Shown piece by piece: positions 16,544 to 41,096 of a DNA stretch of 46,038 nt (the first letter of the stretch is position 1; the number at the start of each line of letters is the position of its first letter). The notes beneath the pieces were generated by a model, which was not told the origin of the DNA, did not search any database, and saw only the letters and a list, made by a program, of their open reading frames with translations. Source of the stretch: a virus; IMG/VR virus record IMGVR_UViG_3300025890_000004, positions 1 through 46,038 of that record. One strand, written 5' to 3'. Made by a program: the position numbers and the translations under genes.

Positions 16544-16819
16544 ATGGCCGTTAAGAAGAAGAAGAAGGCTAAACGTAATTATCGTAAGGAATACGACAAC
16601 TATCATGCTTCTGCAAAACAGAAGAAGAACAGGGCCTCCCGTAATGCTGCTCGAGCCAATGCTAAGAAGGCTGGCAAGAAGGTAGCCGGTAAGGACGTTA
16701 CGCACAAGGATGGCAACCCTAGGAACAACAAGGCGTCGAACCTAGGTGTCGCAAGCAAGTCGAAGAACAGGTCATACGCCCGTACCAAGACTGCCCGTAA
16801 GAAGAACCCCAGATCATAA
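16544..16819 (+). CDS. Lys/Arg-rich small protein with isolated HNH-like motif
   Basis: RBS AGGAG (gatAGGAGtaaccaATG). 91 aa. KDVTHKDGNPRNNKASNL matches the HNH core (vdHkDgn..NN...NL). It is the last gene before the terminator. Confidence 0.6.
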   Translation: MAVKKKKKAKRNYRKEYDNYHASAKQKKNRASRNAARANAKKAGKKVAGKDVTHKDGNPRNNKASNLGVASKSKNRSYARTKTARKKNPRS

Positions 16820-16823
16820 ACAC

Positions 16824-16878
16824 AAAAAAGCCCCCGTGCCGCCAAGGTTAATACCAAGGTAGCACGGGGGCTTTTGTT
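16824..16878. terminator. bidirectional rho-independent terminator between the convergent gene blocks
   Basis: The stem is GCCCCCGTGC (16830-16839) paired with GCACGGGGGC (16862-16871). AAAAAA lies on the left and TTTTGTTT on the right. The loop is 22 nt. Confidence 0.7.
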
Positions 16879-16942
16879 TATTCAAACCTCTTTTGCGTCA
16901 GAACAAGTTGTCGCGTATCTACTTTACGACAGAAAACAGTTG

Positions 16943-26469: not shown

Positions 26470-28353
26470 TCAATGGATTTCAGAATAGTCAGAGCCGTAC
26501 TGAATGTCACAGCCCAGTGTTACGTTAAGTTTAAGTTTGTGATTAGTCATGCTCATTGCATCAACCTGAATTGACGAAAGATGCTCCCTATCAAGAGGTG
26601 TATCTTTGCAAGTCAGGATTACTTCATCATGAAACTGACCTATAGGCCATACCCCATGTTTCGTCAGTTGCTGCACCCAAGTGTCGAAGCAGTACACCCC
26701 AGTGCTTTGATTGATTGTTGACCATACATCTTTCTCCTCTTTCAAGTAGGTCCAGAATTGAGACACAGGGTTCCATACCCAGTTGGTCTCACCAGTGAAG
26801 TGTTTGACTGACGCTGGCAACGTACGTCTCCGTATGCTGTCAGTAACGTCCTTGACTGCCCAATTACGCTTCCAGTAAGCGTCGATCAGGTCAGAAGCCT
26901 GTGCCTCAGACAGCCCAGTTGCTCGACTAAGTGTCCTACAGCCTACACCGTAAACACAGGCGTAGTTGGCGGCTTTGTAGTTCTTACGGATGGACTTTAC
27001 CTTATCTCCACCCAGCTGTATCTCCTGTTCAGTGATTGCACCTGCGAACTTGGCAAGGTCCAGATGTGGGTCCCAGCCCTCTTGCTCCATTGCAGCACAG
27101 TATTCTGGGTCCAGCGGTGTCATGTAGTGGCGTTTGGTAGTGTCCTCAAGGCTGACCATATCAGTCCCACTAAGCACATGACCATCAGGTGCTTTCAGTA
27201 GTGAGCGTATCTCCTTTCCGTATGGCTTGTCTACGCCCGGTAGGTTAACCAGCGGTGCAGCATGTTTGAACCGTAAGGTATTCGTGAGACCCTTCAGTAC
27301 AGCAGTTACACGGCCATCAGGCTGTACAGCTGACAGGAAGCCTTGAACGATTGTCAACCTGTGTGATACCACTGTGTAGCCATCCAGCAGCTTAACAGCA
27401 GGGTCACGATCGATCAGCTCCAGAACAGATGGGCACAACTCTTTAGACCCTGTACGAACCTGAGGGATTTCCTTAGTGTTGCCGTCCTTATCCTTTTTGT
27501 AGTCGAAGGTCTTAGGCTGCCAACCTAAGCTGAACAACCAATCTTTGATCTGTTGGTGACTGTTAGGATTAGCTGGCACGTGTTCCTTCACGACCTTGAT
27601 TGGCCCTTCAGTGCTTTCGTGCAAACCTTCATCCTTCAGAAGATCGAACCATCGTTGGCCGGCTACAGTTCTTGAACCACATGCCTTCAGGATTACCGTT
27701 GGCTTCTTACGTTCAACGTACCTAGGATTAAGTGGCATGGCATGTGATAGAAGATCAAACTTCTGTGCCTTCTCTTCCTCCAGTTGCTTAGCTAATGCTT
27801 CAGCACCCTCTACATCCAGATGCCACCCTTGCTGGGCTTGGTGATACGCCAGCTGACCTTTGAATGATGTGTACTCAATGAACCGCTGCTTGTTCACAGG
27901 GTCATCTTTGTACAGCAGTCCCAGCCGATCATCGATAAGATAGAACAGCTGCAAGTTGATCTTGACGTCTTCAATACAACGGTGGTCGTACTCTTCTGTA
28001 GTCAAGTTCTCCCAGTCGTCAACCTTTGGCTTAGGTACACCAAAGTCTTCACCCCAGTGTGCCAGCCCTTGGCGTGGACGGTCGTACCAGAGGTAACTGG
28101 CCAGCCAGTAGGTATCCACTAGCCTACAATCGATACGTGTTTTGTACACCTTCTCAAGTGCTGGTATGTCGAAGCCAATGATATGATGACCAATGACTAC
28201 TGTAGCCTTGTTGAAGACCTCCTTGATTTCCTCACGACCATGTGCAAGCCTGATAGTATCAGAAGGGTCATCAACATCCACCCATGCCATCGTATGGACC
28301 TTGGTAAGTCGATCTAGGAAACCGTCCGTCTCAATGTCGAACAATATTCGCAT
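26470..28353 (-). CDS. family A DNA polymerase with 3'-5' exonuclease domain
   Basis: Exo I is FDIETDG and Exo II is HHIIGFDIPAL. Pol motif B-like is RKNYKAANYACVYGVG and motif C is QFHDEVIL. Confidence 0.85.
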   Translation of the reverse strand: MRILFDIETDGFLDRLTKVHTMAWVDVDDPSDTIRLAHGREEIKEVFNKATVVIGHHIIGFDIPALEKVYKTRIDCRLVDTYWLASYLWYDRPRQGLAHWGEDFGVPKPKVDDWENLTTEEYDHRCIEDVKINLQLFYLIDDRLGLLYKDDPVNKQRFIEYTSFKGQLAYHQAQQGWHLDVEGAEALAKQLEEEKAQKFDLLSHAMPLNPRYVERKKPTVILKACGSRTVAGQRWFDLLKDEGLHESTEGPIKVVKEHVPANPNSHQQIKDWLFSLGWQPKTFDYKKDKDGNTKEIPQVRTGSKELCPSVLELIDRDPAVKLLDGYTVVSHRLTIVQGFLSAVQPDGRVTAVLKGLTNTLRFKHAAPLVNLPGVDKPYGKEIRSLLKAPDGHVLSGTDMVSLEDTTKRHYMTPLDPEYCAAMEQEGWDPHLDLAKFAGAITEQEIQLGGDKVKSIRKNYKAANYACVYGVGCRTLSRATGLSEAQASDLIDAYWKRNWAVKDVTDSIRRRTLPASVKHFTGETNWVWNPVSQFWTYLKEEKDVWSTINQSTGVYCFDTWVQQLTKHGVWPIGQFHDEVILTCKDTPLDREHLSSIQVDAMSMTNHKLKLNVTLGCDIQYGSDYSEIH

Positions 28354-29975
28354 TACATTTCCTCCATAGTAAAGGTTTTGAAGTCGAACATCATACTACC
28401 TGCAGGTCCCTCCAACGTGTTGGGACGGTTCTTCTCAACGAATAGCTTAGTAGTATTCCGAATAACCTCATCGTCATTGTGCTTGTCCCGCTGCAGACTG
28501 ATGACTACAGAGGCACGTTGGCCCAACATCTTACAATATTTGAAGTCCCCATCATCATTTGTGTGACCGATCGATATGATGCCTACACCCAATTCAGCTG
28601 CCAGCTTAGACAACCTGATTGCCAGTGTAGCAAGTGCACTCTCACGGCCTTCGTCTGATGCGATAGACAGCACATCTTGAATAGGTTCGAACATAATAAA
28701 CTTACAGCCGTAACCTTTGGCCAACAGTTTGATCTGGTCAACCAGCTCCTCAATGCCATCCTCTTCCTTCATGTAGTACTGGAAGAATGTCCCCTTCGAA
28801 CTGATGCGCTCGATGGAAGCCTCAACGTCATTCACACGGTCCTTCTCAAACACTAGGTCCTTACGGGTCAGATTATCCTGAAGATCGTATGACACAAGGC
28901 CCAACAGGGTGCGAACCTTAGTCTCTTCAAGATGCCATGCAGCAAATGGTACATCCCGTTGCAGGAAGTTCCACTCAAGGTAGCGCATGAGCTCAGTCTT
29001 ACCAATGCCTGTGGGTGCTTTGAACAGCGTGAAGTGACCGCTCATGATGCCCAGTATCTTCTCATCCAGAGCATGGATACCTGTAGGGACATATGAGAAG
29101 TCGTCCTTCTCACGGAACAGCTTCAGGAAGTCAGTTGGACTATTGTAAATGTTGTCCGGTGTAAACTTGCCGGCATTCCACCACAGCTGATTGAACCGCT
29201 TGGCATCTCCAGCATTGAGGAAGTCACAGGCATCTTTGAAGTCACCATGATCAACACGTTTGACCTTGCCACTGAAGACACTGTTGAGCCGGTCAGCAAT
29301 CTTGTTGCCAGCCTCATCATTATCAATTGACAGGATGATCTCATTGAAGCCGCTAAGATAGTTCTTAGCTAAGTCCCAGAACTTCTTCGATGGCGTCGAT
29401 GATGGTAGTGAGACCACAGGGTTCTCGAAGCGCCCATCTGTGTTAATCATCTGATAGGCAGCCATTGCGTCCTCTTCACCCTCAGTGATCGTGATCTTTT
29501 TTGAACAGCCTTTGGGGAACAGCTGTTGACCCCACAGCTCACCAGCCACAGAACCAACACTGTAGAAGTCCTTAGGGAAGGTTCGCACCTTCATTGCACC
29601 AGATGGGTAGGTGTACTCGACAGCCACCATATCCTTCGACACAGGGTCCTTAACTGTAACAGCATTGTATTTCTTACGTACGTCTGTCTTAATATTACGA
29701 TATTCGTCACTCGACCGTTCACCTTGTATTGGCTCACGTACATTCGAAACCAACGAGACCACATTGTCGGTGGCAGCCATAGGTTCAATCCCTTTCTCAA
29801 GATCAGAAGGATAGGGGTATCTTTCCCTTGAACCTTCATCTAATTTAACCGCTCTTTTAGGTGGATAATTGCCACCACATGAATGACATTTTCCTATGCC
29901 ACTTTCGTTGTTGTAACAGAATGCATCACTTGAAGAACAGTCCTCAAATGGGCACTCCTGTTTGTTCATCTCCAT
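28353..29975 (-). CDS. primase-helicase (T7 gp4-like)
   Basis: Zn ribbon CPFEDC...CHSCG. TOPRIM motifs TEGEEDAMA and SIDNDEAGN. Walker A is KAPTGIGKT and the Walker B-like motif is FIMFEPIQD. ATG 29975 has GGAG 7 nt upstream, and the track start 29987 is a GTG. Confidence 0.85.
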   Translation of the reverse strand: MEMNKQECPFEDCSSSDAFCYNNESGIGKCHSCGGNYPPKRAVKLDEGSRERYPYPSDLEKGIEPMAATDNVVSLVSNVREPIQGERSSDEYRNIKTDVRKKYNAVTVKDPVSKDMVAVEYTYPSGAMKVRTFPKDFYSVGSVAGELWGQQLFPKGCSKKITITEGEEDAMAAYQMINTDGRFENPVVSLPSSTPSKKFWDLAKNYLSGFNEIILSIDNDEAGNKIADRLNSVFSGKVKRVDHGDFKDACDFLNAGDAKRFNQLWWNAGKFTPDNIYNSPTDFLKLFREKDDFSYVPTGIHALDEKILGIMSGHFTLFKAPTGIGKTELMRYLEWNFLQRDVPFAAWHLEETKVRTLLGLVSYDLQDNLTRKDLVFEKDRVNDVEASIERISSKGTFFQYYMKEEDGIEELVDQIKLLAKGYGCKFIMFEPIQDVLSIASDEGRESALATLAIRLSKLAAELGVGIISIGHTNDDGDFKYCKMLGQRASVVISLQRDKHNDDEVIRNTTKLFVEKNRPNTLEGPAGSMMFDFKTFTMEEM

Positions 29976-30074
29976 CTTAATCTCCACTTATGTACACAGT
30001 TGTAAACAGTTGTTTTTTAACCTTAGTTTTCAAAAGTCGTTTAACAACTGCCTAACAATTGTGTACCTATGTAT

Positions 30075-30110
30075 CTATATAACCGCATTAAAAAGGGCAA
30101 TAGTAACCCC
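30075..30110 (-). promoter_or_regulatory. conserved 36-bp element, copy A (reads GGGGTTACTATTGCCCTTTTTAATGCGGTTATATAG on the minus strand)
   Basis: Exact reverse complement of 36801-36836. It starts 1 nt after the sigma-factor stop, 100 bp upstream of the primase-helicase ATG. Confidence 0.6.
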
Positions 30111-30791
30111 TTAGAGGAAAAAATCGTCGGAATTAAGCCCTCTTTTCTCCAACTGTTGCCGAAGTGCAACATATGATCTCTGTTGAATGTGGTGGACAGC
30201 CTCCCTAGTGATGCCTAACTTGTCTGCAATGTACTGCTGCGTTCGACCATTCTGAGTGCATTTGATAACATACCGCTGCTTCAAGGTAAGGGCTTCGACG
30301 GCCTCCCTGATAGTAGTCAAGTGTCGCTCAATATTGGCTGTCACTTCAGTTGCACGATGCTCTAGTCCATCAACGTCCCAGCCGTCCGATACAATGTCAT
30401 GCCTAGTCATGGGTTCCCCTTCTTCGCTCAAGGATTTCACTTCTTCATCAAGGGACACAAATTGCGTACCTTTGTGTATAGGTGCTTCCCTGCTGATAAA
30501 GTCTTTTGCTGCACCTTCAAGTCTCTGCTTAAGATATACGCTAATGTGCACCTTCTTAATACCGGCGTCCTCTTTTCTTCGAAGATGTTTTCCGCATGAA
30601 ATTGTAAGAGCTTCAAACAAGGCTGACTGCAACTCTGCGACAGTGTAGGTGGTATCGTTTGGGTCGTTCCTTTCATAGGCAATCTTGTTTACCAAGGGCA
30701 TGTACTTTTCAACGTCCCTGTTCCTACGCTTAATTTCAGCGTCAGTAAGATCAAGGTTCAAATCTTTGTCGTGGTAATGGTTCTTTTGCAT
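30111..30791 (-). CDS. sigma-70 family RNA polymerase sigma factor
   Basis: Region-2-like YMPLVNKIAYER....VAELQSALFEALTIS. Region-4 HTH is LTLKQRYVIKCTQNGRTQQYIADKLGITREAVHHIQQRSYVALRQQL. Confidence 0.7.
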   Translation of the reverse strand: MQKNHYHDKDLNLDLTDAEIKRRNRDVEKYMPLVNKIAYERNDPNDTTYTVAELQSALFEALTISCGKHLRRKEDAGIKKVHISVYLKQRLEGAAKDFISREAPIHKGTQFVSLDEEVKSLSEEGEPMTRHDIVSDGWDVDGLEHRATEVTANIERHLTTIREAVEALTLKQRYVIKCTQNGRTQQYIADKLGITREAVHHIQQRSYVALRQQLEKRGLNSDDFFL

Positions 30792-30794
30792 AAT

Positions 30795-31184: not shown

Positions 31185-31396
31185 TTCATTGCCTTTCTGT
31201 ATGCTTCTTCAGGGGTCAGTTTCTTGCTTTGGACAAGGCGGTGGTATTCATCCATGTCCGATTCATGACGTTGCTTCAGGTCCTTCATGTTATGATAGAA
31301 GTGGATGATTGCTGCCCCTATAGTCAGCAGGACAAACATCAGGCTGATGGCTCCCAATGTTGCCACCATTGTAAATTGCATATCACTCATTGTCAT
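31181..31396 (-). CDS. small membrane protein (71 aa)
   Basis: Single TM (FTMVATLGAISLMFVLLTIGAAIIHFY) followed by a charged C-terminus. Confidence 0.5.
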   Translation of the reverse strand: MTMSDMQFTMVATLGAISLMFVLLTIGAAIIHFYHNMKDLKQRHESDMDEYHRLVQSKKLTPEEAYRKAMK

Positions 31397-31673
31397 TGCC
31401 TTCCTCTGTGTGATTGTAACCAGCTGTGAACTCCTCCACAGCGCCGTGGATTGAAGGGTCGTATTCTACGATAGCCCATTGGTATTCATACATTGCATCA
31501 ATGTCATCTGAGATAGCTGCACGGTAAAGTCTGCCCCCATTAATCAGATACTCTTCGTATGTCCAGTCCCACAGGTCTGACTCTGCCGTTGCAAGATCAG
31601 GGAACAGGTGGCGCTCCCATTGGTCCCACCTGTCCTGTGCTACCACGTATTCTGTCCGGTCTACCATTACCAT
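31383..31673 (-). CDS. acidic Trp-rich hypothetical protein (96 aa)
   Basis: ORF within the chain of overlapping early genes. No motif. Confidence 0.5.
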   Translation of the reverse strand: MVMVDRTEYVVAQDRWDQWERHLFPDLATAESDLWDWTYEEYLINGGRLYRAAISDDIDAMYEYQWAIVEYDPSIHGAVEEFTAGYNHTEEGNDNE

Positions 31674-31987
31674 GCTCCCATTTTCTCTAGTGCTTCCCGG
31701 TCACGGTCCTGAATTGGCCGCCGGTCATTAGGGTGTTGCTTCATGTATTCAATTGCAGCTGCACATACTCTACCAAAGTGCTGCTGGTCTTCGTTACGGA
31801 AGATCATCTGAGCAATGCTAGCCTTGTAAGGGTTGATGATCAGCATAGCCTCTTGCCAAAAGATCGCTGCATCTGTTCCCATCGCTGGGCATTTGGCCTT
31901 CAGCATACCTTTGCGTTTGCCTCTTGATACCGTAGCTGCATCCATTGCTGCCACGAAGCGTTCTGCGATTTCCTGTTCTTCACTCAT
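31667..31987 (-). CDS. hypothetical protein (106 aa)
   Basis: ORF in the early-gene chain. No motif. Confidence 0.5.
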   Translation of the reverse strand: MSEEQEIAERFVAAMDAATVSRGKRKGMLKAKCPAMGTDAAIFWQEAMLIINPYKASIAQMIFRNEDQQHFGRVCAAAIEYMKQHPNDRRPIQDRDREALEKMGAW

Positions 31988-31989
31988 GT

Positions 31990-32364
31990 TTAATTTCCTT
32001 CTACGTATGGGCGACCGTCGCGGGATTGCAACATCGCATATTGTGAGTTGAATACGGGCTCGTAGGTGTCAGCCCGCACGAATGTTTTTACCTTGTAAGG
32101 GTTGTACGTTACAGGGAACATATCTTTCAATACGTCCCTGCCCAAACTGTGGTCGCCAATGTAGCCTCTGGCAAACGCATGGACGTTCTTACGGCCTTCC
32201 TGCAGCACACGTCTGCGTCCAGCTGGCTGCACTACCCATTCGACGTTGCAAAGATCGACGGTCTTCATGTGGCCAACAACACGCCCTTTGTGACGTACGC
32301 TCCAAATCTTTTTGTGCAGGTTCCAGTACACCTCTACTTTCTTACGTTTATTCAAACCGCTCAT
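31990..32364 (-). CDS. hypothetical protein (124 aa, basic)
   Basis: ATG 32364 is preceded by GGGAGA. Contains YWNLHKKIWSVRHKGRVVGH...NVHAFARG. Function unknown. Confidence 0.5.
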   Translation of the reverse strand: MSGLNKRKKVEVYWNLHKKIWSVRHKGRVVGHMKTVDLCNVEWVVQPAGRRRVLQEGRKNVHAFARGYIGDHSLGRDVLKDMFPVTYNPYKVKTFVRADTYEPVFNSQYAMLQSRDGRPYVEGN

Positions 32365-32665
32365 TCCATTTCTCCCAAATATCGTTACAAACTTCGTTAT
32401 CGGCATAGTCGCTCACTAATGTGCTTCCGTCCTCTTCATTGCCCCAGATCAGATAGAACCAGCCATGACCCGGCCCGACCTTACCTATTGTTAAGTGGTC
32501 TTCACCAGTGTTGCCAATGGCCTCGATGATAGAAGCAAAGTTGGCACAGCGCCTACAGGCCCACTCTTCACCATCGTTAACGGAAATATTGTACCCACGT
32601 TCAAGAATGATCTTGACCAGTGCCTTGGCAGCGCGTCGCTTACCTTGTGAAAATCCTTCGTACAT
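32348..32665 (-). CDS. hypothetical protein (105 aa)
   Basis: ATG 32665 is preceded by AAGAAAGGAAACACA. Confidence 0.5.
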   Translation of the reverse strand: MYEGFSQGKRRAAKALVKIILERGYNISVNDGEEWACRRCANFASIIEAIGNTGEDHLTIGKVGPGHGWFYLIWGNEEDGSTLVSDYADNEVCNDIWEKWNERFE

Positions 32666-32678
32666 TGTGTTTCCTTTC

Positions 32679-33146
32679 TTATTCACAAATCCACCAACCG
32701 CCATTATTGGGGTTGTGTGTCCATCCTTGTTTACGTTTGGCTACGCTGCCGCTTACCTGCTTGAACTTGCCAATGGGGACAACCTTGCCGTTCTGGTACA
32801 AGAGTGTCGCATCGCGCCATGCACGGGCCCGTTTCTCAGGCTTACTAATGTGTAGGACGCAATCCTGTTCACTACAGAAGAGAGCTCCAATGCTAGGGGT
32901 GCGATCACCTGTATCATTAACCGGACCTGTCCTGAAGAACTGGTCAGCAGGTAGGATAAAGGAAGGATTGACCTCACCTTCCCAAGAACCTTGCAGTTCG
33001 ACCAGTTCAAAACCGTTCAAATCGCATGATAGTTTAAGAATTTCATGGCTTTGTTCGTGGTCATCAATCTCAAAGATGATAAACTCCTGCCACATATTTG
33101 GGCTGCTGTGGCTGCATACGCCGCTGTTTAGATTATTCATTACCAT
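32679..33146 (-). CDS. hypothetical protein (155 aa)
   Basis: ATG 33146 is preceded by TAAGGAGAAATATT. Confidence 0.55.
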   Translation of the reverse strand: MVMNNLNSGVCSHSSPNMWQEFIIFEIDDHEQSHEILKLSCDLNGFELVELQGSWEGEVNPSFILPADQFFRTGPVNDTGDRTPSIGALFCSEQDCVLHISKPEKRARAWRDATLLYQNGKVVPIGKFKQVSGSVAKRKQGWTHNPNNGGWWICE

Positions 33147-33157
33147 AATATTTCTCC

Positions 33158-33319
33158 TTAGTACAAATCTTGTTCATCGTTTTCATATACAGCTGCGGCC
33201 TTGTCGTACGCCGCTTGTTTATATGCTTGTGGATTGACCCACTCTTCATATGAGATTACTTCGTAGCCGCAAGCAGCTTGCTCCGCTGCCCACTCCTGAT
33301 ATGTTTCATAGGGTGTCAT
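33158..33319 (-). CDS. small acidic protein (53 aa), absent from the ORF track
   Basis: ATG 33319 overlaps the upstream stop (ATGA). The product is MTPYETYQEWAAEQAACGYEVISYEEWVNPQAYKQAAYDKAAAVYENDEQDLY. Its stop lies within the RBS of the next gene. Confidence 0.45.
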   Translation of the reverse strand: MTPYETYQEWAAEQAACGYEVISYEEWVNPQAYKQAAYDKAAAVYENDEQDLY

Positions 33320-33546
33320 TTGAATATAACTCCATTAATTTCAGCCAACTGTTTGGCTATGTATAGCGCAGGTATGCCGTCAAACGTAGCGAACGCAAGA
33401 CCGCTTGAATAGTCAGGTCCATCATTACCATACCTAGCAAGGACTGTTGATATCCCGCAGTGGTACAGGTCAAACACTTTTTCAGACACTCTTACTGTAC
33501 CTAAAAAAGTGCAGTGCTCACAATCATGTGTGTAGTGTGGTCTCAT
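33316..33546 (-). CDS. hypothetical Cys/His-containing protein (76 aa)
   Basis: HDCEHC...HC pattern at the N-terminus. ORF in the coupled chain. Confidence 0.5.
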   Translation of the reverse strand: MRPHYTHDCEHCTFLGTVRVSEKVFDLYHCGISTVLARYGNDGPDYSSGLAFATFDGIPALYIAKQLAEINGVIFK

Positions 33547-33698
33547 CGCCCTTGTACCTCATCATACGCCATAGCCAGACGGTATATCTCGTTTCGGCTT
33601 TCCTCTTTTGCCTCATCTGAGGCATTAGGGTTCTCGATCACCATCAGATGAATTTGTGTGGCATAGAACCACGATGGAGCCATTGTTTTGTCAGTCAT
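33543..33698 (-). CDS. small protein (51 aa), absent from the ORF track
   Basis: ATG 33698 is preceded by AAGGATAAAAATC. The stop overlaps the next ATG (ATGA). The product is MTDKTMAPSWFYATQIHLMVIENPNASDEAKEESRNEIYRLAMAYDEVQGR. Confidence 0.45.
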   Translation of the reverse strand: MTDKTMAPSWFYATQIHLMVIENPNASDEAKEESRNEIYRLAMAYDEVQGR

Positions 33699-33710
33699 GA
33701 TTTTTATCCT

Positions 33711-34316
33711 TTAAGCTATGCAATCGACGTGCAGCTGTGACACTGCTTCTGCCGTTGCCAATGATTTGTTTGGGCCACGTCCTGCTACAAACGCGCACCA
33801 TGTGTCCCACCAATATTCACTGGTTCCACTAGCGTCGCACAGTTCGTTGTACAACGCAATCTTTTTGTAGACCGTTTCGTCCTTGGTCGCAGTACTAAAC
33901 TTGAACTGTTGTGGTCCAATGCCAAGGCGGGCCAGATTATGGGTATCAAGACAGCTGGTCTTGAAGCCTAACAGCTGCAACATGAAGGAAGCCTTCACGA
34001 TACCTAAGCCCGGGCATTCCCTAGCGATATACATCTGTGCTCCTGCCCTGTCCCCGGCATGATAGAAGGCAACCAACCTGTCCAACAAGCCCCATTGCCC
34101 TGTCAGCCAATCAATAGCCTGCTTCTTATGTCCCCATACGTGGACTGAGTCAGTGCCGTTGCGCTCCCAATCTTTCATCTGGGCAGGTACAGTAACCAAC
34201 CCTGATTGTATGGTCAGCACAGTGAACACTCCTGCCCTACATACCTGTTCATCTGGGTCACGTGTCCACGTGCCCACATGGGCAAGCGATAAATGCTCCA
34301 TTGCTTCTTTATACAT
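33711..34316 (-). CDS. HhH-GPD-like DNA glycosylase family protein, putative
   Basis: CPGLGIVKASFMLQLLGFKTSCLDTHNLARLG parallels endonuclease III LPGVGRKTANVVL....AVDTHIFRV, with the HhH Lys and downstream Asp conserved. ATG 34316 is preceded by AGGAAGGAAG. The alternative long form starts at GTG 34490. Confidence 0.45.
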   Translation of the reverse strand: MYKEAMEHLSLAHVGTWTRDPDEQVCRAGVFTVLTIQSGLVTVPAQMKDWERNGTDSVHVWGHKKQAIDWLTGQWGLLDRLVAFYHAGDRAGAQMYIARECPGLGIVKASFMLQLLGFKTSCLDTHNLARLGIGPQQFKFSTATKDETVYKKIALYNELCDASGTSEYWWDTWCAFVAGRGPNKSLATAEAVSQLHVDCIA

Positions 34317-34465
34317 CACTTTGCTTCCTTCCTGCGCACTGGCATTAGGATTGTGCCGGCTGGGCCGGACGTATATACGCGGGCACTTCCGTCGATTAGG
34401 CGGGACTGGGCGTCCCATTTGGTTATGGTGCGCAGCTTTCCCGCGCTGGTATAAATTCTGTACAT
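34316..34465 (-). CDS. small basic protein (49 aa), alternative to the 5' extension of the 33711..34490 ORF
   Basis: ATG 34465 is preceded by AAGGAAAATCAAA. The stop overlaps ATG 34316 (TGATG). Confidence 0.35.
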   Translation of the reverse strand: MYRIYTSAGKLRTITKWDAQSRLIDGSARVYTSGPAGTILMPVRRKEAK

Positions 34466-34480
34466 TTTGATTTTCCTTGT

Positions 34481-34569
34481 AATTGACCACTGCTCCGGCG
34501 GGCCGCGCCGTGATAGTACCACGTAGTGATAGTAGAGAGAGAGTGTTGGGGGCCGGAGCCCCCGCTGTT
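34481..34569 (-). repeat. early-region intergenic cassette, copy 1 (hairpin + extended -10-like box)
   Basis: 89 bp, aligning with 34860-34947. The hairpin is GGGGGC/cgga/GCCCCC at 34548-34563. On the minus strand, TGGTACTAT lies at 34521-34513. Confidence 0.85.
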
Positions 34570-34802
34570 TATTCATATGCTGCTCGTGTTGCAGCTTCGC
34601 GTTCGGCCATCAGCTGCTCTTGCTCTTCGAAGAGTGCGATGATGCGCCCCTGCGTTATCTTTACTTCTTCGCGCCACAAGGCGACATAGTCTTCCGTATA
34701 TTCGCCAGTCATTACACCTAGGTTGGCTTCAGCATATAGGCGGCTTTGAGCGGCATGGGATTTTAACAGGTTCGACAATACCATTTTGGGTGTTGGCTTC
34801 AT
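34569..34802 (-). CDS. hypothetical protein (77 aa)
   Basis: ATG 34802 is preceded by AAAGGAAAGTTAAAA. The gene is flanked on both sides by the 88-89-bp cassette. Confidence 0.5.
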   Translation of the reverse strand: MKPTPKMVLSNLLKSHAAQSRLYAEANLGVMTGEYTEDYVALWREEVKITQGRIIALFEEQEQLMAEREAATRAAYE

Positions 34803-34859
34803 TTTTAACTTTCCTTTTGCATAGGTCAAATGCACGTTATTGTGCACTTGTAACTAGGC

Positions 34860-34947
34860 AATTGACCACTGCTATGGCGGGCCGGACCGTGATAGTACCA
34901 CGTAGTGATAGTAGGAGAGTGTTGGGGGACCGTAGTCCCCCGCTGTT
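34860..34947 (-). repeat. early-region intergenic cassette, copy 2
   Basis: 88 bp. The hairpin is GGGGGAC/cgta/GTCCCCC at 34924-34941. On the minus strand, TGGTACTAT lies at 34900-34892. Confidence 0.85.
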
Positions 34948-34948
34948 G

Positions 34949-35431
34949 TTAGACGGTTATCTGTTGGAATTTTGCAATAACTGCGGCAATCTCAGCAGCC
35001 GCATCTTTCACGGCTTGGCTTGCGTCATCATCTACCTTTTTGAGTAGGTTAAGCTCCGCCTTAAAGAAGTCAAAAGCTTTGGCTTCCCGCTCTGGGAATA
35101 AAGCTTTGACTTTAGGACCGAAAAATGAGCATTCACCTAAAGCACATAAATCGGCGTGGAATTGTGTCGCTTTCCGATCGCCTTTAGGCAATGTGATGGT
35201 AATCGTGCCCGTTTCTTTATCCCGCTTCACTTTCATGGTGGTGGAAAGTTTGGCCACCTTTTCAAAGTATTTGCCGTGGTCACTTGCAGTCAACAGTTTG
35301 ACTAGAGGGGTGGTGTTTCCATGCTCAATAATGTTTTCGACGCAGCGTTCAAACGCTACCTTAGCAGCTGCGCCGTTGCCGGCTTCACGTTTCAGGTAAT
35401 TGTTAACTGTTTTCATAGCGGTATTTGTCAT
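34949..35431 (-). CDS. first early protein of the leftward block (160 aa), hypothetical
   Basis: ATG 35431 is preceded by AGGAAAAAATATC. The longer track start at 35503 lacks an RBS. Confidence 0.5.
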   Translation of the reverse strand: MTNTAMKTVNNYLKREAGNGAAAKVAFERCVENIIEHGNTTPLVKLLTASDHGKYFEKVAKLSTTMKVKRDKETGTITITLPKGDRKATQFHADLCALGECSFFGPKVKALFPEREAKAFDFFKAELNLLKKVDDDASQAVKDAAAEIAAVIAKFQQITV

Positions 35432-35922
35432 GATATTTTTTCCTAGTTTGGTTAAGTATTGCACAATGAAAAGCACCATTTGTTGGTACGTTTCACGCTG
35501 CAATAGCGCCCGGTTGCCCGGTTTTACCTGTCGTCTTAAGCCCCCCCGGTATCATCACTTCGCTAGCGCCGCTAGCTTTCCACGTAATCCGGTATTTCCT
35601 ACCCCTAGATCAAAAAGCTAGGGCGACGGGTGCGCATTCCACATATTTTGGTCAGCCCATATGTCAGGGGCATGGCTTGAACTGTTGTATTCGCGCGGCA
35701 ATGGGCCTTGTTAAATCCGCCTCAAAGTGCGGCTCCCAAATTTTTTCCTCAGCGCGGGCGGTATCAACATAGGTGCCCGGGGGCGGTATATGCTGAAAGT
35801 GCCTATTGGCGTGGGTTTGGCTGGCGTCTCCGTGTTTGTTTCGATTTACCTAATCTAGCGTTTTGATCAGGATAATCAACACCTAATTGATCACATAATG
35901 TTACAACATTGAAACAATTATC

Positions 35923-35936
35923 ACATGTTAACATGT
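35923..35936. repeat. perfect 14-bp palindrome ACATGTTAACATGT in the AT-rich block
   Basis: Read directly from the sequence. On the minus strand, an extended -10-like TGTGATAAT lies at 35925-35917, overlapping the palindrome's left end. Confidence 0.8.
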
Positions 35937-36029
35937 TAAGCAGTTTGCCTTTATTGTGTAATAGAACGCGACGCGCGCGTGGATGACAACCAACATAATG
36001 TCAAGGGGCAAATGATAGAAGTTCGTAGG

Positions 36030-36038
36030 TTATCCACA
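36030..36038 (+). promoter_or_regulatory. DnaA box (TTATCCACA), perfect consensus
   Basis: Exact 9-mer in non-coding DNA. Confidence 0.6.
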
Positions 36039-36142
36039 GATAGTTGAGGTATTGGAAAATTATTCCTGTTTGCAGCTGGATAGTAGAATAATATTGCTTG
36101 AACAACGTTCAGACATTTTATGGCCTAGGGTACCGGAAAAGT

Positions 36143-36178
36143 AAAAAACGTCTGAAAACGGCTTAAAATGGCCGTAAA
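36143..36178. other. four phased A-tracts (A6, A4, A4, A3; ~10.5-bp period), predicted bent DNA
   Basis: In gtAAAAAAcgtctgAAAAcggcttAAAAtggccgtAAAcg the tracts start at 36143, 36155, 36165 and 36176. Confidence 0.6.
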
Positions 36179-36201
36179 CGTGTCAATAGGTATAATGACT
36201 G

Positions 36202-36210
36202 TTATCCACA
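36202..36210 (+). promoter_or_regulatory. DnaA box (TTATCCACA), perfect consensus, second copy
   Basis: Exact 9-mer in the same orientation as the first. A perfect TATAAT lies just upstream at 36191-36196. Confidence 0.6.
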
Positions 36211-36320
36211 AGTTATTTGCAGGCTGCCAGCTGGACATATTCCAATGTATGAATATGTAACACATTCAAACGTTTGCATATAAAGGTATCTTTATGTTAC
36301 AAAATGCCACGCGAATGTAT

Positions 36321-36414
36321 CCAAACGGTAACATAAGCATATCGTTATATAACCAAACGGTAACATAAGCATCTCGTTATATAACCAAACGGTAACATAA
36401 GCATATCGTTATAT
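36321..36414. repeat. 32-bp x ~2.9 tandem iterons (CCAAACGGTAACATAAGCATATCGTTATATAA)
   Basis: Units start at 36321, 36353 (one mismatch) and 36385 (truncated). They are contiguous, with no spacers. Confidence 0.9.
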
Positions 36415-36800
36415 TCGAATATGTGCATGTGTCCCCTTAGAATAGTAGTGTTGCACATTGGCCACAGTGGTGTGGTAATAATGTCACAGGGGTCCCCCGG
36501 GGGGCACGGGCCTTTGCTGCGTAGTACAATGCACCTTAAGAAAATCTCAGAAAAGTTTGGCTCCCTAGGCTTCCCTATGTCCATGAGCCCTTGACTACCC
36601 ACGAAGCCCCATATGGTCATTTGAATACCCATGTCCTCTGTTCTAGGACCAAGGACACTTTCGAGCACCGATATCTGACCTGTGACCCCTGTATGGACAT
36701 CTAGTGAAGCTCTGCTGAGCGTCTGACCTGTGACAAATATATCACACCTGACAACAAAAGCGCCCTACAGATGAAAACAAATGTGTTTATTTTGTGACAG

Positions 36801-36836
36801 GGGGTTACTATTGCCCTTTTTAATGCGGTTATATAG
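36801..36836 (+). promoter_or_regulatory. conserved 36-bp element, copy B
   Basis: GGGGTTACTATTGCCCTTTTTAATGCGGTTATATAG is the exact reverse complement of 30075-30110. It lies ~225 bp upstream of the first rightward gene. Confidence 0.6.
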
Positions 36837-36870
36837 GTATACAGAGGTACTCTCAAGTTACCCAAGTTTC

Positions 36871-37032
36871 AACAGCTGTCTTACAGTTGTACCTTTCCTC
36901 ATTCATTAAAAATTAAACAGCTGTACCTTTTCTAAAATAATTGAAATTAAACAGCTGTCTTACAGTTGAAACTTTTCTAATATCATTAAAATCTAACAAC
37001 TGTCCTACGTATGTGCACCTATGTGTACATAG
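36871..37032 (+). promoter_or_regulatory. array of ACAG[C/T]TGT-containing modules in the rightward leader
   Basis: AACAGCTGTCTTACAGTTG occurs exactly at 36871-36889 and 36950-36968. AAACAGCTGTACC is at 36915-36927 and AACAACTGT at 36995-37003. TGTGTACATA at 37022-37031 is shared with the primase leader. Confidence 0.55.
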
Positions 37033-37060
37033 GGGGCTGTCCCTACAATAGGAGGCCATC

Positions 37061-37789
37061 ATGGCTAAGAGTATCTCAGACTTCATCAAACGTGCAAAGA
37101 AACACATCACATCCCCTAAAGCATCAGGGGCACAGATGCACAGACACAGCAACAGCTCCAACCCTCCCACAGGAGTTAACACTGTAAAAGGTGAATCCCG
37201 TGCACAGTCGGATTACCGTGCTGCTAAGATCAATGCTGCCCGTGAAGCCTACAAGGCACGTAAGGCCGGTAAGACTACTCAGTCTGCACCTGCACCCGGG
37301 GCATCAACTCAGCCACGATCGCCCTCCAGTAAGGCAACTGCAAAGTTCCCTGCACCTAAGAACTACCCACGTACTACTCCTGAAGAAGGTGGCGGCTTGG
37401 CTCCTCCAGTTAAACGGAAGCATTCACCTAAGCCAGATAATGTCTACGGTAAGAAGAGTGGTCCACAGGCCAAGAAGCCTGATAATGTTTATGGTAAGAA
37501 GAGTGCTGCACCTAGTCCTAAAAGTAGCAGCATGACTCTCCGTGAGTCCTTTGCTAAACAGAACAAAGGTAACAAACGCTACGGGCCAGCAGCTGGTCAG
37601 GCTGGGAACAGACCTGCAGCTCAGCAGGGGGGAGCACCTTCGCACGCAGAGAACGCTAAGCTAGCACGTAAGGTCAAGTCACGTAAGAACCCACGTAGCC
37701 GTATCACATCAGGTAAGGCATCCACAGCACAAGCTGCAGGGAAAGCTCTTTCCACACGCCGTAAAAACAAGAAACCGGGTCAACGCTAA
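37061..37789 (+). CDS. highly basic low-complexity (Lys/Pro/Ser/Ala-rich) protein
   Basis: RBS is taGGAGGccatcATG. 242 aa with an internal duplication KPDNVYGKKS x2 and no predicted globular core. It is the first gene of the rightward block. Confidence 0.6.
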   Translation: MAKSISDFIKRAKKHITSPKASGAQMHRHSNSSNPPTGVNTVKGESRAQSDYRAAKINAAREAYKARKAGKTTQSAPAPGASTQPRSPSSKATAKFPAPKNYPRTTPEEGGGLAPPVKRKHSPKPDNVYGKKSGPQAKKPDNVYGKKSAAPSPKSSSMTLRESFAKQNKGNKRYGPAAGQAGNRPAAQQGGAPSHAENAKLARKVKSRKNPRSRITSGKASTAQAAGKALSTRRKNKKPGQR

Positions 37790-38328
37790 TGTCTCTCTTT
37801 GAACAGTCACAACTACGCAGTGTTAACAACATCATCCGTACGAAGTCACTGTTCCTAGAGACCTCCTACGACGATGACTCTGAAGCAGTCATGACCCTCA
37901 AAGAGGCTGACTGGACAACTAAGGACGGCAGGAAACTGCTGTCCCTCCGCCGTCTCTTTGTAGAGTACACCCTAGACGACCCCAGTGAATATGAGTTCGC
38001 TATGGAGGTCTTTGGCTCATGGGAAGTATGGTTGAAGGTACGATCGGCTAATAAGCCCATCATTGCAGCTGTGCAGAAGGCTAGAGAAGAGGCTGACATC
38101 AAACGGAAGTCCCTAGCGTTCAAGACAGTCATCCATAGTGTCAAAGAGGGCAACGCAACATTCCAAGCCCAGAAGTGGCTTGTAGACGAACCTTGGAAGG
38201 CCAAACCTACCACTAAGGACGGACGCAAGGAGAGAGCTGAACAAGCCACCCGTGCTGAAGAGGCCTTTGTGAAAGAAGGGTTTGACTCCGACCTTGAGCG
38301 TCTGAAAGAAGAAGGTCTGATAAACTAA
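37789..38328 (+). CDS. hypothetical protein (179 aa)
   Basis: TAATG coupling on both sides. Charged and helical-looking. Function not recognised. Confidence 0.55.
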   Translation: MSLFEQSQLRSVNNIIRTKSLFLETSYDDDSEAVMTLKEADWTTKDGRKLLSLRRLFVEYTLDDPSEYEFAMEVFGSWEVWLKVRSANKPIIAAVQKAREEADIKRKSLAFKTVIHSVKEGNATFQAQKWLVDEPWKAKPTTKDGRKERAEQATRAEEAFVKEGFDSDLERLKEEGLIN

Positions 38329-41096
38329 TGGCTAAAACAGCAACGCTTACGACTATTGTAGCTGGCTTCGCGTCTGCTGCTGCCTACAATTCAAACTTCG
38401 CTAATCTTAACACTGCACTCGAGAACACTTTGTCTCTCGACGGGTCAACTCCAAATGCAATGGGAGCTGACTTCGATCTGAACAGCAACAACATCATTAA
38501 CGGTGGCACAGCTGCTTTCTCAAGCGTTACTGTTGGTGGCATTGATATGACCACACAGGCTGCCGCTGCCGCTGCTTCAGCTGCTGCTGCCCTTGTATCT
38601 GAAAACAACGCTGCTACCTCTGAGACTAATGCTTCTACCTCTGAGGCTAATGCTGCTACCTCTGAGACTAATGCTGGCACAAGTGAAACAAACGCAGGTA
38701 CTTCTGAGACCAATGCGGCTGCCAGTGCAGCTGCTGCTCTCGTATCTGAGAACAACGCCCTAGGTGCATCTACGTACCAAGGAGCATGGGTTACTGCTAC
38801 GGCATACTCCTTAAACGATATCGTTACCAACAACGGCACAAGCTACATTTGTGCTACCGCGCACACCTCTGGAGCGTTAGACGATGAACCCGGCACAGGT
38901 GCAGTTGAAGGCACATACTGGGACATCCTAGCCTCCAAAGGTGACACAGGCGCTACTGGAGCCACAGGTGCTCAAGGTGATGCAGGTGCTACTGGTGCAA
39001 CCGGAGCCACTGGTGCAACTGGCCCTGCTGGTGCTGACGGTGCTGATGGTTCAGCAGCTACGGTAGCTGTAGGTACAGTTAGTGCCGGGGCAGCTGCTGT
39101 TGTCAATTCTGGCACATCCTCTGCTGCAGTATTCGACTTCACTCTGCAGACGGGTGCAACTGGTGCAACTGGTGCTGCTGGTGCTGATGGTGCAGACGGT
39201 ATCTCATTGAACTGGCAAGGCGCTTATAGTGGCGTTACTACATACGCTGTACAGGATGCCGTGTCTGACCAGAGCAGTTCATGGATATGTGTAGCTGCAA
39301 CCACAGGCAACGCTCCTCCAACCCTGCCGACTGAGACTAACACTTGGTGGGAACTCGTTGCAAAGGTAGGCGCGGAAGGCCCGGCCGGCGCTGGCTCCGG
39401 TGATATGCTAAAGTCTGAGAACCTCTCTGGACTAGCTAACTACACCACAGCACGTTCGAATATGGGTTTGACTATTGGTACGGATGTACAGGCGCATTCT
39501 GGTATTCTTGATGGCACGACCGCTTCGTTCACCGTCGAAGGCGCTAGTTTGTTGGTCACAGCTTTTGGTTGGGGTAATCATGCGTCAGCGGGTTATCTTA
39601 CAGACATCACTGGTCAGGCCACAGGCTCACTGTCTGATGTTACGATTACCTCAATTGCTTCTGGTGAGATCCTTAAGTGGAACGGTACGGCGTTCATCAA
39701 CAACACCCTTGCTGAAGCTGGCATTGCTGCTGCCTCTCATACGCACACTGCTGCTGATGTCTCTGACTTTGATACAGAGGTAGCAAACAACTCTGCTGTC
39801 ACAGCTAACACAGCCAAGGTATCCAACGCCACTCACACGGGTGACGTAACGGGTTCCACAACGCTGACTATTGCTGATAATGCGGTTACTGCTGCAAAAC
39901 TGGCAGACACAGCCGTCACTCCCGGCTCATACACAGCCACAGACATTACTGTGGATGCACAAGGCAGGATCACTGCTGCGTCTAATGGTTCTGGTGGGGG
40001 AGGTGGTGGAGCTGGTGAATACACTCGCAAGACGACTACCTATACCGCCGTTGCTGGTGATCTACTGTCTGCTGACACTTCTGGTGCAGCCTTCACGATC
40101 ACGCTACCCATCACTCCGACTGAAGGTGACATTGTTACCATCCGGGATGCTGATGGCTCATGGGCAACCAAAAACCTGACCGTTGCACGTAATGGTGAAA
40201 CTATTGAAGGTGCGGCTGAAGACCTTGTGTGTGACATTGACAACGCACGGGTTGAACTCTCGTACCTTGATGGTAGCTGGCGTACAAGTATGTCTGCTTC
40301 TAACTCCGGTACATTCGAAGGTGCTACCGAGACGTCTGTTAAGGCGGCTCTGGATGGCGCAACCATCACCACGACAACTGTGGTTGGCACCGATAAAGTG
40401 CTGCTACAAGATGCCAGTGATGCTGACAACCTGCGGACTGACACTGTAACCAACCTTCTGGCACTTGCCGGTGGTGGTGGTGGCGGTTTCAAGAGCATCC
40501 AAGCGTTCACTTCAAGTGGCACTTGGACTAAACCTGCTGGCATAACCAAGGTACTCGTCTTCGTAACGGGTGGTGGTCACGAGGGTGGTGGTTCTAGTGG
40601 CGCTACTAATGGTGGCGGTGGCGGCGGTGGCGCTGGCGCTACGGCAATTCAGATGCTTGATGTAACTACCCCAACAACATCTACGATTACAGTTGGATCA
40701 CAGGGCCAGACATCTACATGGGCCGATGGCACCAACACCAATGTTACGGCAAGTGGTGGGAGTGCTGGTAGTAACAGTTCAGGCCTAGCTGGCGGTGCTG
40801 GTGGTTCTGGTTCATCGACTACAACTGGCGCTGCCCTAAGCATAAGTGGCGGTGACGGTACTGGCGGTAGTGTTGGTAACTCAGATAGCTCTATCCCCTC
40901 GTTTGGTGGCTCTGGTGGCATTGGCGGCGCATCCTTCTGGGGTGGCGGCGGTGCTGGTGGTTACGCTAGTACAGCAACTGATGTTACCGGTGGCGCTGGT
41001 AAAGCCTACGGCTCCGGTGGCGGCGGCGGTAAAGGTAACAATATCGACGGAGGTGCTGGTAAACCCGGCGTTGTATTCGTAATGGAGTTTGAATAA
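38328..41096 (+). CDS. tail fiber protein (TSETNAx repeats, collagen-like G-X-Y runs, Gly-rich C-terminal domain)
   Basis: The N-terminus ..YNSNFANLNTALENTLSLDGSTPNAMGADFDLNSNNIINGG is typical of podovirus fibers. G-X-Y x12 is encoded at 38940-39050. The C-terminus has GGGGGF..F.SSGTWTKPAG and poly-Gly. Confidence 0.75.
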   Translation: MAKTATLTTIVAGFASAAAYNSNFANLNTALENTLSLDGSTPNAMGADFDLNSNNIINGGTAAFSSVTVGGIDMTTQAAAAAASAAAALVSENNAATSETNASTSEANAATSETNAGTSETNAGTSETNAAASAAAALVSENNALGASTYQGAWVTATAYSLNDIVTNNGTSYICATAHTSGALDDEPGTGAVEGTYWDILASKGDTGATGATGAQGDAGATGATGATGATGPAGADGADGSAATVAVGTVSAGAAAVVNSGTSSAAVFDFTLQTGATGATGAAGADGADGISLNWQGAYSGVTTYAVQDAVSDQSSSWICVAATTGNAPPTLPTETNTWWELVAKVGAEGPAGAGSGDMLKSENLSGLANYTTARSNMGLTIGTDVQAHSGILDGTTASFTVEGASLLVTAFGWGNHASAGYLTDITGQATGSLSDVTITSIASGEILKWNGTAFINNTLAEAGIAAASHTHTAADVSDFDTEVANNSAVTANTAKVSNATHTGDVTGSTTLTIADNAVTAAKLADTAVTPGSYTATDITVDAQGRITAASNGSGGGGGGAGEYTRKTTTYTAVAGDLLSADTSGAAFTITLPITPTEGDIVTIRDADGSWATKNLTVARNGETIEGAAEDLVCDIDNARVELSYLDGSWRTSMSASNSGTFEGATETSVKAALDGATITTTTVVGTDKVLLQDASDADNLRTDTVTNLLALAGGGGGGFKSIQAFTSSGTWTKPAGITKVLVFVTGGGHEGGGSSGATNGGGGGGGAGATAIQMLDVTTPTTSTITVGSQGQTSTWADGTNTNVTASGGSAGSNSSGLAGGAGGSGSSTTTGAALSISGGDGTGGSVGNSDSSIPSFGGSGGIGGASFWGGGGAGGYASTATDVTGGAGKAYGSGGGGGKGNNIDGGAGKPGVVFVMEFE

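Follow-up and report, generated by a model that had tools for sequence, protein, structure and literature searches.

A 36-bp two-block element as the putative cognate promoter of a phage σ factor in an uncultivated cobavirus-like podovirus

The virus record IMGVR_UViG_3300025890_000004, whose 46,038 nt were analysed in full and are called the window below, is an uncultivated marine cobavirus-like podovirus. It raises the question of why one and the same 36-bp element heads both of its gene arms, with one copy abutting the gene of a phage σ70-family factor. The original prediction offered two answers: a candidate promoter for that σ factor, or an inverted repeat that could allow inversion of the segment between the copies. 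The analysis described here favours the first, namely that the 36-bp element is probably the cognate promoter of the phage-encoded σ factor.

Placement of the element and the adjoining σ gene

The 36-mer GGGGTTACTATTGCCCTTTTTAATGCGGTTATATAG occurs exactly twice in the whole window, in the positions and on the strands originally given. No further match with up to 3 mismatches was found in the window (0 expected from 100 dinucleotide shuffles), and a scan of the window retrieved no third copy at up to 13 mismatches out of 36, nor at 9 with the central six positions masked. The two copies are inverted relative to each other, lie 6690 nt apart and are perfectly identical:

36801..36836, plus strand: element copy B, putative σ-dependent promoter; exact 36-mer heading the structural/lysis arm, which runs from 37061 via the circular junction to 16819
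30075..30110, minus strand: element copy A, putative σ-dependent promoter; exact 36-mer heading the replication/nucleotide-metabolism arm, from the primase-helicase to 16943
30111..30791, minus strand: phage σ70-family factor of 226 aa, last gene of the early leftward operon (Pfam, PHROG, PDB profile, Foldseek)

The minus copy follows the stop codon of open reading frame (ORF) 30111-30791 directly, from the next nucleotide on, and its downstream end lies 99-100 nt from the likely primase-helicase ATG at 29975 (the ORF list starts this gene at an in-frame GTG, 29987; the ATG was taken as the likely start). For the plus copy, the distance to the ATG at 37061 is 225 nt. These distances agree with the earlier description (1 nt after the σ stop, ~100 bp and ~225 bp). 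A repeat finder lengthens the pair to 44 nt at 93% identity; the ~12 nt of downstream similarity noticed earlier (ATACATAGGTAC vs ATACAGAGGTAC) are real but can be aligned only with a 2-nt offset. Each copy is oriented toward a gene arm, that is, a conserved low-copy motif stands ahead of the middle/late clusters, as do promoters of the phiEco32/7-11 type.

The product of ORF 30111-30791 had been called a σ factor, and this identity is borne out by matches to Pfam Sigma70_r4 (PF04545; 25.3 bits against a cutoff of 24.1) and to PHROG 351, “RNA polymerase sigma factor” (2e-10). A profile built from four homologs aligns its C-terminal 65 residues to region 4.2 of RpoS, the C-terminal tail included (E 7e-4), and the region 4 helix-turn-helix, the -35 binding domain, is present. 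In the AlphaFold (AF2) model, which is of modest quality with a mean predicted local distance difference test (pLDDT) score of 64.6, a disordered linker joins the three helices of the N-terminal part to a C-terminal domain of four helices. The top matches of this model in a Foldseek search of the PDB are without exception σ factors aligned over the full length (E-values 1e-3 to 1e-1), including the extracytoplasmic function (ECF) factors SigL, SigH and SigE, as well as FliA, SigB and σ32; σ4 chains of 3hug superpose with template-modelling (TM) scores of 0.74-0.84. The σ2 region has no direct Pfam Sigma70_r2 match, and the match to FliA region 2 is weak (E 0.08). The distant profile matches P0020, P0025, P0028 and P0031 align to residues ~20-104 of the query, where each of them carries PF04542 (Sigma70_r2), and the third N-terminal helix, residues 87-102, corresponds to region 2.3/2.4. 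We treat the protein as a two-domain member of the σ70 family, in which σ4 is shown directly and σ2 transitively, via distant relatives.

The σ family is tiny. An exhaustive profile search among 1.84 billion cluster representatives gave 8 at E <= 1e-10, tblastn against 50,697 phage records found no relative at E <= 1e-3, and the absence of relatives from GTDB genomes leaves no host or prophage lead. No anti-σ gene was identified in the window.

Conservation of the element and its concerted change with the σ factor

Homologs of the σ factor with 44-83% protein identity were found on eight further metagenomic contigs. In all recovered σ contigs a G-run and a homologous element follow straight after the σ stop codon (1 nt later in L002, L007 and L008), and next come a 100-150-nt leader and the primase-helicase gene. 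The contigs showing the σ-adjacent element are L002, L003, L005, L006, L007/L008 and L011, which with the window make up five σ lineages; the structural-arm position was covered by five contigs (L011-L015), recovered through homologs of the first structural-arm gene. Five lineages thus have the element after the σ stop, and three, which are all those with the region recovered, have it ahead of the structural arm. A check of related genomes, proposed with the original prediction, hence finds the element conserved at equivalent positions wherever these were recovered in σ-bearing lineages at 44-83% identity. The sequences, divided into an upstream block U, a spacer and a downstream block D that ends in a -10-like core, are as follows:

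Window element: U (positions 1-11) GGGGTTACTAT; spacer (12-17) TGCCCT; D (18-36) TTTTAATGCGG plus core TTATATAG
L011 and L006, σ-adjacent: U GGGGTGATAAT; spacer CGTCCC; D TTTTCTGGTTC; core TTATATAG
L002, L007 and L008, σ-adjacent: U GGGGTTGTTAT; spacer TTCAA; D AAACAATGGGG; core TTATATAT
L005, σ-adjacent: U GGGGTTGTAAT; spacer TGCCCT; D TTTTAATGTG; core TTATTATA
L003, σ-adjacent: U GGGGGTATAAT; spacer TGGCAA; D ATTTAATGTG; core TTATTATA
L011, L012 and L013, structural arm: U GGGGTGATAAT; spacer TAGACT; D TTTTCTGGTTC; core TTATATAG
L014 and L015, structural arm: U GGGGTTGTTAT; spacer TTTGA; D AAACAATGGGG; core (T/A)TATATA

As can be seen, within a lineage both copies share blocks U and D, and the 5-6 nt between the blocks are free to differ. 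The full copies of L011 read GGGGTGATAAT-CGTCCC-TTTTCTGGTTCTTATATAG after the σ gene and GGGGTGATAAT-TAGACT-TTTTCTGGTTCTTATATAG at the structural arm, and L012 and L013, which come from two further samples, have the same late copy as L011. In lineage 3, GGGGTTGTTATTTTGAAAACAATGGGG(T/A)TATATA of L014/L015 compares with GGGGTTGTTATTTCAAAAACAATGGGGTTATATA after the σ gene of L002/L007/L008. In the consensus, block U (positions 1-11) reads GGGGT-NNN-W-AT, the spacer of ~6 nt is unconstrained, and block D is at first T/A-rich, continues with AATGNG or a lineage variant and closes with an invariant TTATATA; L011 represents the only lineage without the AATGNG motif in block D. This comparison shows what appears to be a bipartite promoter. 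The σ-promoter part of the original prediction gains from the conservation at both positions and from the concerted change described below, while the hexamers proposed with it, TTGCCC-15 nt-TATAG, are not supported: since the L011 copies differ at the corresponding six positions (CGTCCC vs TAGACT) and the adjoining blocks are identical, TTGCCC falls in the unconstrained spacer.

A control is provided by the cobavirus CRP-4, in which no σ relative was found by tblastn and no σ domain in the early ORFs scanned. There is no gap between its primase gene and the ORF before it, and its structural arm is preceded by TTGACA-N18-TAATAT, with no G-run element. The presence of the element therefore tracks the presence of the σ gene: σ-bearing relatives have the motif, and σ-less CRP-4 has a host-type promoter instead.

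The closest comparison is with L011, part of a 44-kb contig of the same architecture that is 88.5-99.8% identical to the window across aligned segments. The flanks of both element copies are ~100% identical in the two genomes, and nine positions of the element (6, 8, 9, 22-24 and 26-28) are changed to identical new bases in both L011 copies. The σ genes are near-identical in nucleotides except for three patches, a short N-terminal one and the two following:

30174..30209, minus strand: region 4.2 recognition helix by the RpoS alignment, codons 195-206, TREAVHHIQQRS; L011 reads MQHAVHYMQKRA
30468..30611, minus strand: σ2 patch, codons 61-108, covering the end of helix 51-75, a loop and helix 87-102 (L011 comparison, model)

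There are 41 amino-acid differences between the two σ proteins, 25 of them in residues 61-109, 7 in residues 195-206 and none in residues 110-194. In the recognition helix the changes from the window to L011 include T195M, R196Q, E197H and H201Y; in the RpoS alignment T195, R196, E197 and H201 correspond to T583, R584, E585 and Q589 of E. coli σ70. We take residues R584, E585, R588 and Q589 of the E. coli protein to contact -35 bases, as genetics and structure indicate. In the σ2 region, L011 has substitutions even where all of the other four lineages agree (C66A, H69R). Joint change of two separated blocks at two sites 6.7 kb apart and of both DNA-reading segments of the σ factor is what a cognate σ/promoter pair would predict and would be hard to obtain otherwise.

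Several observations weigh against this interpretation. In L017 and L018, the most distant of the σ relatives (23-28% identity), no alignment of the element could be made; both retain a σ gene with a long structured gap behind it. The lineage-3 copies come from different contigs. The assignment of σ2 is indirect, given the missing Pfam r2 match, the pLDDT of 64.6 and Foldseek E-values of only 1e-3 to 1e-1. The invariant TTATATA resembles a host -10 element. The co-variation is drawn from one close genome pair plus three more distant lineages, and since the window and L011 differ in ~28 divergent patches, ~12% of the aligned 18.7 kb, the coincidence of promoter and σ patches could partly be due to chance or to general mosaic recombination.

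The patches themselves have ~65% identity in otherwise 94-99% identical genomes, and the DNA polymerase gene, early ORFs and the tail fibre each contain some of them (for example, window 28048-28283, 32870-33069, 34843-34941, 35529-35652, 37395-37515 and 38988-39889). Such a distribution points to frequent exchange of short tracts by recombination with less closely related phages.

Searches of IMG/VR with the exact 36-mer, the degenerate family pattern or a single σ sequence gave no match. A profile-based σ search there returned one contig, the same as L007, and with the lineage-3 variant of the element, too, only that contig came up. Two of the recovered contigs have peculiarities of their own. 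In L004 (ERZ10646654), a 53-kb contig that is longer than one genome length and nearly identical to the window, the σ gene is split into two ORFs (5486-6393), probably by a frameshift error of long reads, the contig being concatemeric or over-assembled. In the remote relative L017, Hint and LAGLIDADG domains within the primase-helicase (3535-5931) point to the insertion of an intein or a homing endonuclease.

Other explanations of the element

The alternative that survives best, and which we nevertheless consider unlikely, is a promoter for the housekeeping or another σ factor of the host, possibly with an early phage activator acting on the lineage-specific blocks, the phage σ-like protein acting otherwise. 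The invariant TTATATA/TATAAT-like core would make a good host-type -10 element, and other early ORFs are also patch-divergent relative to L011 (e.g., at 32870-33069 and 34843-35184), so that one of them could encode a specificity factor; however, the early ORFs scanned matched no DNA-binding family. A σ70 consensus scan calls neither site, and there is no TTGACA-like hexamer at a distance of 16-18 nt. The only TTG-hexamer, TTGCCC, is the one that is unconstrained between the L011 copies; it lies 13 nt from TATATA and 15 nt from TATAG. The sites do not fit a group 1 host σ70 promoter, in which TTGACA-like and TATAAT-like hexamers, both under constraint, would stand 16-18 nt apart. The host-type solution looks different, since σ-less CRP-4 has its perfect TTGACA-N18-TAATAT at the equivalent place, and a host σ factor leaves the coincidence of changes in the 4.2 helix and σ2 with changes in both promoter blocks to be accounted for.

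Quite improbable, in our view, is that the identity of the copies is a by-product of gene conversion or mosaicism and that the element has no function, or a non-transcriptional one such as the binding of a protein for replication or packaging. Mosaicism is plain in these genomes, with the ~28 patches in 18.7 kb mentioned above, and the noncoding region beside copy B has DnaA-box-like sites and tandem repeats suggestive of an origin. Conversion, however, would homogenise a continuous tract, and in L011 and lineage 3 two identical blocks flank a free spacer, which argues for selection on a bipartite site. Position, orientation and adjacency to the σ stop codon are kept in relatives with only 44-51% σ identity, and this argues for a function in gene expression.

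Inversion of the 6.7-kb early segment between the copies, by site-specific or homologous crossover, finds no support and is extremely improbable: the copies are indeed inverted, 6690 nt apart and identical in the window, but 13 of 13 junction-bearing assembled contigs have one arrangement and none is an inverted isomer (σ stop, element and primase leader in L002-L008 and L011; noncoding region, element and structural leader in L011-L015), neither the ORFs scanned nor the precomputed Pfam lists of L004 and L011 include an integrase, an invertase or another recombinase family, the L011 repeat has 6 mismatches in its centre, where a crossover core would need identity, and inversion would detach the σ gene and the early genes from their promoters.

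Three further candidates were rejected. An intrinsic terminator was not supported, since no hairpin with a T-run was called at either copy, and weak GGG/CCC pairing is absent from L003 and from the late copy of L011. A T7-type promoter was set aside because no single-subunit RNA polymerase was matched among the ORFs scanned, all large ones included. The 9-mer GGTTATATA in 36315-36414 (minus strand), considered as a weaker third site, is created by repeat junctions; L011, with a single copy of the repeat, lacks the 9-mer, which does not co-vary with the element.

A σ-driven transcription programme and its genomic setting

With the element as the promoter of the phage σ factor, the following programme can be proposed. 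Host RNA polymerase (RNAP) with a host σ factor would transcribe the leftward early operon from the noncoding region at 35.5-36.8 kb, the σ gene 30111-30791 being the last early gene. The new σ factor would bind the host core polymerase and fire from the two identical promoters, copy A driving the replication and nucleotide-metabolism arm and copy B the virion and lysis arm, and both σ-driven arms would converge on the bidirectional terminator at 16819-16882. With TATATA (positions 30-35) as the -10 element and a 17-18-nt spacer, block U would span about -41 to -31, the stretch read by region 4.2, and the variable part of block D about -20 to -13, the extended -10 zone that regions 2.4/3.0 recognise. 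The predicted starts are then at ~30070-30068 (minus strand) and ~36841-36843 (plus strand), in a conserved ATACA. In an alternative register, GGGGTT may be the -35 and AATGNG the -10 element.

Since the two promoters are identical, any difference between middle and late timing must come from elsewhere. No terminator-like site was called after the σ gene, so that read-through from the early operon probably lets the replication arm begin sooner; as a matter of speculation, the longer structural leader, with its two hairpins and T-rich tracts, could delay or attenuate late expression. The two leaders are:

29976..30074, minus strand: replication-arm leader, AT-rich, with one long predicted hairpin (fold z = -5.4) whose 3′ arm contains TGTGTACATA
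36837..37060, plus strand: structural-arm leader (fold z -4.3) with three AACAGCTGT-type repeats, two CAGCTGTCTTACAGTTG hairpins and a TGTGTACATA hairpin before the ribosome-binding site (RBS)

The motif TGTGTACATA, reported earlier as common to both leaders, indeed occurs only twice in the window, at 29989-29998 (minus strand) and 37022-37031 (plus strand), against 0.08 occurrences expected, each time near the 3′ end of a leader. The replication-leader hairpin spans from just past the promoter to just before the RBS, and the same one-hairpin layout, with differing sequence, is found in L003 (5747-5862, z -6.4) and L005 (1889-1982, z -4.8) and more weakly in L002 (1213-1316, z -1.4). A four-lineage alignment of the σ-to-primase leaders gave no consensus pairs, only single-sequence folds being significant. 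A near-palindrome of the TACATA(A/T/G)G type stands at both ends of every σ-to-primase leader, and TGTGTACATA of the window is its 3′ copy. The hairpin and palindromes may serve in processing of the RNase III type, stabilise the 5′ end, form an operator array or combine promoter and AT-rich origin in the manner of T7.

The structural-arm leader is 100% conserved in L011. Its CAGCTGTCTTACAGTTG hairpins, at 36873-36889 and 36952-36968, are each followed by T-rich tracts, and the second was called terminator-like; the repeats and hairpins of 36868-37003 could be attenuators or protein-binding sites that delay late expression. The late leaders of lineage 3 (L014/L015) have tandem ATTATACATATGA repeats in place of the window-type repeats.

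Since bases 1-99 of the window recur at 45940-46038, the genome is circularly assembled and ~45.9 kb long. The plus-strand arm runs from 37061 through the junction to 16819 and encodes a tail fibre, a T7-like terminase, capsid and tail proteins, a 1480-aa internal virion protein, a VgrG3-like hydrolase (the C-terminus of an 861-aa ORF) and an endolysin-like protein. The minus-strand arm, from ~35500 to 16943, comprises ~15 small early ORFs, the σ gene, the primase-helicase, a family A DNA polymerase, an exonuclease, MazG and a class II (B12) ribonucleotide reductase. The features that frame the arms are:

28353..29975, minus strand: primase-helicase, first gene after copy A (PHROG 239 at 3e-92; Pfam Toprim_2, DnaB_C)
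37061..37789, plus strand: first structural-arm gene, downstream of copy B, followed by a PHROG 8035 protein and a tail-fibre protein
16819..16882, no strand: bidirectional terminator-like hairpin where the arms converge, a 30-nt inverted repeat around GCCCCCGTGC with A-run and T-run flanks
35504..36800, no strand: 1.3-kb noncoding region between the arms, bordering copy B, with DnaA-box-like sites, TTGACA hexamers and three 32-nt tandem repeats

No RNAP family was matched among the ORFs scanned, all large ones included, and the earlier remark that the genome has no phage RNAP holds to this extent. A tRNA scan found no tRNA genes, and there was no Rfam match at gathering thresholds.

The noncoding region 35504..36800 is presumed to contain the early promoters and perhaps the origin as well. 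Two TGTGGATAAC sites (DnaA-box consensus TGTGGATAA), at ~36202-36211 and ~36027-36036 (minus strand), are both kept in L011, and two TTGACA hexamers of the minus strand, near 36186 and 36004, have no recognisable -10 element; the TGTGGATAAC/TTGACA stretch is a possible origin and/or early-promoter region. At 36315-36414 there are three 32-nt tandem units in the window and a single copy in L011, and the TGTGCAACAC-type repeats nearby also differ in copy number between the two. A noncoding block of ~100 nt (TAATAATGTCACAGGGG…GTAGTACAATGCACC…AAGAAAATCTCAGAAAA; window ~36470-36600, plus strand), ~300 nt upstream of the putative late promoter, is recognisable in CRP-4 (L016, ~40110-40225, minus strand) and in L014 (1600-1690), though the proteins are only 35-47% identical; the block from TAATAATGTCACAGGGG to AAGAAAATCTCAGAAAA is a candidate noncoding RNA, packaging signal or replication signal.

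Two further repeats lie elsewhere in the leftward arm. A 55-nt repeat (93%) at 34481-34535 and 34860-34914 follows, in each case on the minus strand, a GC-rich hairpin (34547-34564 and 34923-34942). These hairpins lie between early genes and have no T-run after them on the minus strand; the sites may serve for processing within the operon or as internal promoters of the early unit. Around a MazG-like gene (20375-20971) and the start of the next ORF there is a direct repeat of 34 nt, exact in both units (20707-20740 and 20974-21007, 267 nt apart).

The closest cultured relatives are the roseobacter cobaviruses CRP-6, ICBM2, CRP-5 and CRP-4, with amino-acid identities of 39-51% in the primase-helicase and 36-47% in the second structural-arm gene; megablast of window 29000-38000 against the phage collection gave no match. 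Cobaviruses are known for a two-arm layout and a bidirectional terminator and to be without an RNAP, and the paper describing them mentions neither σ factors nor promoters (PMC6775973). Like the window, these members of the Zobellviridae (Roseobacter phage CRP-4, Lentibacter phage ICBM2) are without an RNAP, and their two arms meet at a bidirectional terminator; their genes include MazG, a class II (B12) ribonucleotide reductase and, both T7-like, a DNA polymerase and a primase-helicase. Unlike the window, CRP-4 has no σ gene, no gap before the primase and a host-type structural-arm promoter.

Podovirus σ70-family factors with conserved low-copy middle/late promoters are known from phiEco32 (gp36) and Salmonella phage 7-11 (PMC4331800). 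The window shares with them a podovirus σ70-family factor that would redirect host core polymerase to such promoters, and there is a loose likeness between the phage 7-11 motif tgTGATGTTATA and AATG(N)G-TTATATA of the window. In contrast to those phages, no gp36 homology was detectable (tblastn, E <= 1e-3, the 50,697 phage records), and the window has two promoters only, which are bipartite, carry an upstream G-run block and in one case abut the σ stop codon. It also differs from phiEco32 in its cobavirus-like (Zobellviridae) backbone and in that no anti-σ gene was identified.

Classical examples of early-expressed phage σ factors that switch host polymerase to phage-specific promoters in a temporal programme are gp28 and gp33/34 of Bacillus phage SPO1 and gp55 of T4, the last of which uses a -10-only element, TATAAATA, together with the sliding clamp. 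The window, unlike SPO1, has a single σ factor and no cascade; unlike the T4 case, its element has two conserved blocks and its σ factor keeps the region 4 helix-turn-helix. It resembles ECF (group 4) σ factors in being a small two-domain protein with Foldseek matches to SigL, SigH and SigE and in that promoter specificity tracks σ sequence, but the putative -10 element is AT-rich (TTATATA) and not of the CGT type, region 4.2 and the C-terminal tail align best to RpoS, and no anti-σ factor is seen. In T7, T3 and SP6, promoter variants co-vary with DNA-reading residues of the phage's own RNAP, and each phage reads mainly its own promoters. The window and L011 show a similar co-variation of promoter variants with DNA-reading protein segments, their orthogonality being a sequence-based prediction; here, in contrast, the specificity protein would be a σ subunit for the host enzyme, with two promoters per genome.

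To our knowledge, the timing of gene expression in T7-like marine podoviruses without an RNAP (SIO1, VpV262 and the cobavirus groups) has not been described. The window points to one transcription strategy for RNAP-less cobavirus-like phages, in which a σ factor would control ~39 kb of genome from only two promoters. Phage σ-driven switches are already known; the two copies are very probably the cognate promoter pair of a novel phage σ factor, to which a putative natural specificity swap is added. More tentatively, and with somewhat less than even confidence, we suggest that near-identical phages of the same environments carry mutually incompatible σ/promoter pairs, exchanged by cassette-like swaps of the σ2 and region 4.2 segments together with both promoters. 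The window and L011 form a clean natural experiment on σ specificity, being almost isogenic and differing in a few DNA-reading residues and in the matching promoter-block changes. If the suggestion is right, such a swap would retarget the whole post-early transcription programme, as a σ-based analogue of T7/T3 promoter specificity, and would amount to a transcriptional isolation barrier between co-infecting relatives and a source of ready-made orthogonal σ/promoter pairs.

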